From the NCBI RefSeq assembly GCF_056712565.1, contig NZ_CM160072.1: DNA of 64,000 nucleotides; one strand, given 5' to 3'. Positions within the stretch are counted from its first letter, which is position 1. Every line of letters starts with the position of its first letter. The position numbers and the translations under genes were made by a program. Positions 9,920 through 10,520 of the stretch are shown piece after piece. The notes beneath the pieces are model-generated. The model made no database searches and was not told the origin of the DNA. It was given only the letters and a program-made list of their open reading frames with translations.

Positions 9920-10520
9920 ATGATTAAGGTGTATGGCGTACCCGGCTGGGGCTCTACAATCAGTGAGCTGATGCTAACACTGGCTGATATTCCTTATCAG
10001 TTCGTTGATGTCAGTGGTTTTGACCACGAGGGAACTTCACGCGATTTATTAAAAACCCTGAATCCGTTGTGTCAGGTTCCGACACTGGCGCTGTAAAAAT
10101 AACGAGATTATGACGGAGACAGCGGCGATTGCATTGATGGTTCTCGATCGTCGCCCGGACCTTGCGCCACCTCTTGGGCGCGCCGAACGTCAACAGTTTC
10201 AACGGCTATTGGTCTGGCTGGTTGCTAATGTCTATCCAACGTTCACTTTCGCCGATTACCCTAAGCGTTGGGCATCTGACGCACCTGTAATTGAATATCG
10301 CAAATCGCTTTATATCTGGCTGAATTCGCAATTGACTGCTGAACCGTATGTGTTTGGAGAGCAACTAACGCTGGTGGACTGTTATCTCTGCACCATGCGC
10401 ACATGGGGACCGGGACACGAATGGTTTCAGGATAATGCCCCGAATATTAATGCGATTGCTGATGCTGTATGTCAGATACCGAAATTACAAGAAGTATTAA
10501 AAAGGAATGTCATTATTTAA
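9920..10520 (+). pseudogene. yncG: Glutathione S-transferase homologue split into two reading frames
   Basis: N-terminal 58 codons (MIKVYGVPGWGSTISELMLTLADIPYQF...PTLAL*) stop at 10094-10096; the remainder continues in another frame as track ORF 10110..10520. Confidence 0.55.

Follow-up and report, generated by a model that had tools for sequence, protein, structure and literature searches.

A frameshifted and internally deleted yncG pseudogene beside ansP in Escherichia coli

Reading frames and identity of the locus

Are two short adjacent ORFs next to ansP two small proteins, one protein read in two frames, a miscalled intact gene, or the remains of a single gene? The question is raised by a 64,000-nt stretch of DNA from contig NZ_CM160072.1 (RefSeq assembly GCF_056712565.1), called the window below. 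According to the ORF list and the window letters, a 58-codon ORF starts at ATG 9920 on the plus strand and ends at TAA 10094-10096. A 136-codon ORF, in a frame different from that of the 58-codon ORF, runs from ATG 10110 to TAA 10518-10520. A sequence-only reading of the window had described the pair as a split yncG with 58 codons before the TAA and the remainder in another frame, and all of its coordinates were confirmed.

The upstream neighbor is ansP (8154-9653, minus strand), an intact and divergently oriented gene that is present in 5408 of 5426 genomes and was used as the synteny anchor. The divergent ansP-yncG neighborhood is also found in ATCC 11775, BL21, K-12, O26 and others. Between 9850 and 10560 the window matches E. 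coli DSM 30083 = ATCC 11775 (NZ_CP033092.2) with 100% identity; in that record PGAP labels yncG as "glutathione S-transferase family protein", pseudo, "frameshifted". Over 38,743 aligned bases the window and NZ_CP033092.2 show only five mismatches (268, 376, 6711, 25859 and 37803), which makes the source of the window the same strain or a near-clone, though in a different assembly version. The ATCC 11775 gene, EAS44_RS13285, is the same feature with the same sequence and gene coordinates; its annotation note gives the frameshift only and leaves an 18-nt in-frame deletion unmentioned.

In Pfam searches the 5' piece matched GST_N_2 with E = 2e-4 and 22.3 bits (cut-off 25), and the 3' piece matched GST_C_2 and GST_C_3, both under their cut-offs. 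The GST_N* and GST_C* matches of the fragments have E values of 2e-4 to 2e-2, and it is the truncation of the domains that keeps them under the gathering scores. A conceptually repaired allele shows 92 to 93% identity to E. coli GST-family proteins carrying PF13417 and PF13409 (protein search). The domain homology and the syntenic place beside ansP make the locus a member of the GST superfamily by descent. The ORFs at 9920-10096 and 10110-10520 are the two halves of one yncG. The whole pseudogene occupies 9920-10520 on the plus strand (601 nt vs 618 nt in the intact gene), as delimited by identity to NZ_CP033092.2 and synteny with ansP. Its 5' remnant (9920-10096, plus strand) is the ORF with the GST_N_2 match and holds YncG codons 1-58 followed by the premature TAA. 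The 3' remnant (10095-10520, plus strand) is in the +1 frame and corresponds to YncG codons 59-205 in the alignment; the listed ORF starts inside it, at the internal Met64 (ATG 10110).

We consider it about 95% probable that the locus is a genuine, vertically inherited pseudogene of the non-essential GST-like gene yncG that carries more than one lesion. Behind this reading stand the lesions themselves, the way they recur in independent genomes and are distributed in a nested pattern, and the single frame of the intact homologs.

The frameshift at codon 59

The damage was mapped by base-level alignment to the intact yncG of BL21, K-12 and O26 (618 nt, 205 aa) and to related alleles. The sequence-only reading had proposed such an alignment for locating the indel, and it placed a net gain of 1 nt at 10094 as well as the 18-nt deletion at 10285/10286. 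The first lesion (10094-10101, plus strand; alignment columns 175, 176 and 182) consists of the net +1 nt and two substitutions. At 10094, CTG-GAAAATGAC of the intact allele is replaced by CTGTAAAAATAAC in the window, so that CTG GAA AAT GAC GAG reads CTG TAA AAA TAA CGA G; the string ctgtaaaaataacgag is found at 10091-10106. One substitution is at column 176 of the alignment (window 10095) and the other at column 182 (window 10101), so that the whole lesion fits within 8 nt. The zero frame of yncG runs into two TAA codons, one at 10094-10096 and the other at 10100-10102. The A-run at this lesion has five A in the window and four A in the intact alleles. The short A-run had been named in the sequence-only reading as a place where a sequencing error could have occurred; the lesion is more than a change in the length of this run, as two substitutions accompany the net gain of one base. 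The alignment is compatible with two routes and cannot decide between them: the lesion may have arisen by insertion of a T with two G>A changes, or by a G>T nonsense mutation with an extra A in the run and one G>A change.

Homology to intact YncG restarts at 10095 (AAA AAT AAC GAG ATT ATG) in the +1 frame, where the frame-1 translation KNNEIMTETAAIAL... aligns to ENDEIMTETAAIAL... of the intact protein. Glu59 is changed to K in this downstream frame and Asn60 is retained. ATG 10110, from which the rest of the protein had been said to continue, is the conserved internal Met64 in the alignment; the change of frame was correctly seen, and the point where homology resumes lies further upstream. 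The first lesion is common to all seven sampled alleles of the window's clade (7/7).

A +1 frame that resumes at once could in principle be reached by programmed frameshifting. A ribosome that skipped T 10094 would make a full-length YncG variant (…TLAL-KNNEIMTE…), and in both the window and strain A3 this skip leaves an open frame to the normal stop. The known prfB +1 site combines a stop codon in the A site with a slippery, re-pairing P-site codon and an upstream Shine-Dalgarno-like stimulator. A stop codon is in the A site here as well, but the site CUG UAA A is not slippery (the tRNA that reads CUG would have to pair anew with UGU), and it lacks an upstream Shine-Dalgarno-like stimulator of the prfB kind. 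The two-frame layout is seen in none of the intact homologs, and the product would be without the nearly invariant Glu59. Moreover, the downstream frame is unprotected: in sister lineages it contains either a nonsense codon or a 1-nt deletion, and six conserved codons are gone in the window. Recoding at this site has hardly any chance of being the explanation.

Recurrence of the lesion across genomes

The sequence-only reading had left room for a sequencing error. Homopolymer miscalls are common on some platforms, and a five-A run where the intact alleles have four is the kind of site at which an extra base could be an artifact of sequencing or assembly in a gene that is really intact. This reading is refuted by recurrence. 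At least 99% identity over the 711-nt region is found in 295 complete-genome records, and 380 complete-genome records, which come from many hosts, years and laboratories, have an identical copy of the 80-nt frameshift site. Run length is not the only difference from the intact alleles at this site, as the two substitutions are there as well, and the same genomes have independent second lesions (the loss of 18 nt, a nonsense codon or the loss of a further 1 nt). A 90-nt synthetic "repaired" site gave no records at 99% identity or more among 5,426 genomes, and no genome had the clade flanks with an intact core. The protein search cannot show an intact member of this allele clade, since its 90%-identity clusters hide close variants. 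We regard an error at the A-run as practically out of the question. The earlier suspicion of pseudogenization was borne out by the recurrent allele, the PGAP "frameshifted" label in ATCC 11775 and the further inactivating lesions in relatives.

The 18-nt deletion and nested decay

The second lesion is an 18-nt in-frame deletion with its junction at 10285-10288 on the plus strand (alignment columns 367-384), by which codons 123-128 (EQLKKS/N) are lost. The break point falls between 10285 and 10286; a TG micro-repeat at the borders makes the junction ambiguous by 2 nt. In the yncG allele alignment, the window and strain SCAID URN1 are the only sequences with a gap at columns 367-384. A search with an 81-nt query across the junction told the two states apart: alleles with the deletion match it in one piece, and those without it match in two pieces over 99 nt. 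Going by the junction flanks, about 466 genomes have this allele type. The deletion takes out the invariant Leu125 and the nearly invariant Gln124 and Lys126. It had been overlooked in the sequence-only reading, which put the two pieces together at about the length of an intact GST. The two ORFs total 194 codons, not 205; the 18-nt deletion accounts for part of the difference, and the five codons that separate the stop from Met64 for the rest.

Secondary lesions differ among the carriers of the frameshift. Strain A3 has the frameshift alone, with no further lesion in yncG. Nissle 1917, ABU 83972 and O170:H18 have the frameshift and a CAG>TAG change at codon 92 (Q92 to stop). MS1266 has the frameshift and another 1-nt deletion near the 3' end, and the window and SCAID URN1 have the frameshift and the 18-nt deletion. 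The yncG of Nissle 1917, ABU 83972 and O170:H18 is annotated "frameshifted; internal stop" and shares the +1 lesion and the flanking PAAR-VgrG island with the window; unlike the window copy, it retains the 18 nt and has the codon-92 nonsense change. Such nesting is the mark of an inactivating mutation that was inherited, with neutral decay setting in afterwards. Taken together, the frame is broken relative to the intact orthologs, the lesion is reproducible in independent genomes and secondary inactivating lesions have accumulated.

By far the most likely course of events is the following. In an ancestor of the lineage, codon 59 took up a net of one extra base, with the two substitutions close by, and translation has since ended at the TAA after 58 residues, within the thioredoxin-like GSH-binding domain. 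After the death of the gene, the descendants came to differ, with the loss of 18 nt in the window lineage, the added nonsense codon in the Nissle/ABU 83972 lineage and the loss of one base in MS1266. No functional GST product would be expected, and both ORFs are most likely leftovers, neither a recoded gene nor a split one.

The MS1266 allele (L008:1176-1793) has a further peculiarity. Its 3' third shows a SNP pattern of the CFSAN061763 type and the allele is a recombinant mosaic within the pseudogene, which is consistent with frequent recombination beside the Rhs/T6SS locus.

Intact homologs and the GST fold

With the conceptually repaired allele as query, the protein search gave 433 relatives at E ≤ 1e-20. 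Among the best 120 of these 433, the full-length ones are single-frame proteins of 205-206 aa, and more than 100 are intact. The full-length matches listed come from Escherichia, Citrobacter, Salmonella, Enterobacter, Leclercia and Kosakonia. A two-frame structure in intact homologs had been named beforehand as an observation that would speak against pseudogenization; the listed homologs, being single-frame with 205-206 aa, do not have it. In an alignment of 19 homologs, Asn60 and Leu125 are invariant, and Glu59, Gln124 and Lys126 are nearly so.

K-12 YncG (b1454, 205 aa), a GST-family protein, is encoded at the orthologous locus beside ansP, and the repaired allele shows 92 to 93% protein identity and about 92% DNA identity to it. 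Compared with K-12, the window copy has the +1 frameshift, the stop at codon 59 and the deletion of codons 123-128, and it is followed by a PAAR-VgrG island instead of yncH.

The closest solved relatives of intact YncG are the Proteus mirabilis GST B1-1 (1pmt, E = 3e-13) and E. coli Gst (1a0f, E = 3e-11). These beta-class GSTs have the two-domain fold and the QVPxL...E(T/G) motifs in common with YncG but are only distantly similar to it, and the catalytic Cys10 of 1pmt is opposite a Gly in YncG (residue 11, in the motif PGWGS). In the alignment to 1pmt, the break is located between the cis-Pro segment QVPTL and the E-T motif IMTET. Judged from this alignment, the 5' fragment would stop in the beta3-beta4 turn or hairpin of the thioredoxin-like domain. 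In beta-class GSTs both sides of this hairpin (the cis-Pro loop and the E-T motif) contribute to the GSH site, so neither yncG fragment holds the complete site, and we infer that neither is able to form one. The locus does not encode a functional GST: its reading frame is stopped at codon 59, the remainder lies out of that frame and has lost six conserved codons.

The fold also bears on whether the gene has been split into working parts, that is, whether a 58-aa N-terminal peptide, a 136-aa GST_C-only protein from ATG 10110, or both, are still made and used. Both ORFs are open with an ATG start, the yncG upstream region is kept, and a GAG is found a few bases 5' of ATG 10110. A break within the beta3-beta4 hairpin of the thioredoxin fold, however, leaves the 58-aa piece as an incomplete domain. 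ATG 10110 is merely the internal Met64, and its ribosome-binding site is at best weak and badly spaced. The second ORF is interrupted in sister lineages and is missing conserved residues in the window. A split gene is very improbable on this evidence, although we give it slightly more room than recoding or a sequencing error. Under the preferred reading of a multi-lesion pseudogene, the yncG fragments are probably without function and not expressed.

In published work, intact YncG showed no GST activity in a cell-free test, and its overexpression raised H2O2 tolerance (PMC8228696). The Gly at the position of Cys10 may be related to the reported lack of GST activity.

Selection and regulation

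By the Nei-Gojobori method, dN/dS between the repaired allele and the intact alleles is 0.18 to 0.21, only slightly higher than the 0.09 to 0.15 found between clearly diverged intact alleles. This small difference indicates that most of the roughly 8% nucleotide divergence predates inactivation, and the substitutions by themselves do not demonstrate relaxed selection. Within the frameshift clade there are only about five substitutions, too few for dN/dS. The frameshift is young relative to the allele in which it sits and older than the splits inside the clade.

A promoter and terminator consensus scan around yncG gave nothing over shuffle expectation and no site upstream; the scan is a simple one and is uninformative either way. 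An Rfam scan of the whole window found only the fdnG SECIS element and no element near yncG. This match (SECIS_3, 84.3 bits, 28985-29043) lies inside fdnG and is the ordinary, expected selenocysteine insertion element of formate dehydrogenase-N.

Repeated loss of yncG in E. coli

The frameshift clade is not the only lineage with a damaged yncG. CFSAN061763 and 21AH057 (L004:3071-3677 and L012:5671-6277) belong to a clade with an 11-nt deletion and a nonsense codon; the 80-90% identity band of the yncG search holds 148 records. AMSCJX02 (L015:565-1182) has a nonsense allele. In strain 127, an IS1 is inserted in yncG. Strain E3 (L009) has an IS3-associated deletion, and in strain R6 (L011) yncG is wholly deleted, leaving ansP-ISEc1-yddH. 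Across the genomes, ansP is present in 5,408 and yncG DNA in 4,616, and about 790 have ansP but no yncG DNA. Independent breakage and deletion in other lineages indicate that yncG is dispensable.

The sampled members of the frameshift lineage include urinary and avian isolates, and all seven sampled frameshift alleles (7/7) are linked to the PAAR-VgrG island. The loss of yncG might have been adaptive rather than merely neutral, either selected in its own right or hitch-hiking with acquisition of the island in this lineage. We think this very unlikely.

The flanking hypervariable region

yncG lies at the border of a hypervariable locus, which is listed as Rhs locus 6 (PMC2935791) and as genomic region GR11, "yncG..yddH" (PMC12928451). 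The window resembles K-12-type genomes as far as the yncG stop codon (query position 669 = window 10518) and no further. From the yncG stop to the PAAR gene there is an AT-rich spacer with a GC content of 0.32-0.36, which occupies the place of yncH. It is followed by the PAAR gene (11061-11345, plus strand) and the VgrG gene (11364-13769, plus strand) of an orphan T6SS island, by an M35 peptidase gene after VgrG (about 13759-14520) a hypothetical gene after the peptidase (about 14573-15292), and an ISAs1 remnant (about 15467-15610). The last part of the interval 10520-15610 has a GC content of 0.26-0.35. The genes in this interval make up an orphan T6SS effector island, which has taken the position of yncH/rhsE.

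A literature search for "yncG" found no paper on this pseudogene; the mentions were only as the flank of Rhs locus 6 or GR11 and as an overexpression hit for H2O2 tolerance. The pseudogene is already known from public annotation and is a biologically ordinary dead gene. Its practical consequence is for annotation: a gene-like pair of ORFs is to be annotated as one pseudogene and not as two small proteins. The E. coli type-strain lineage is without YncG, a point to bear in mind when what K-12 showed about YncG and H2O2 tolerance (PMC8228696) is carried over to it. The locus is also a further instance of a dispensable gene that decays repeatedly at the margin of the hypervariable Rhs/T6SS locus.

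Another decayed gene is found nearby in the window. The GntR-family regulator gene mcbR/yncC is represented at about 4392-4559 by a 168-nt internal remnant, annotated as being without its N- and C-terminus, and strain R6 has the same remnant.
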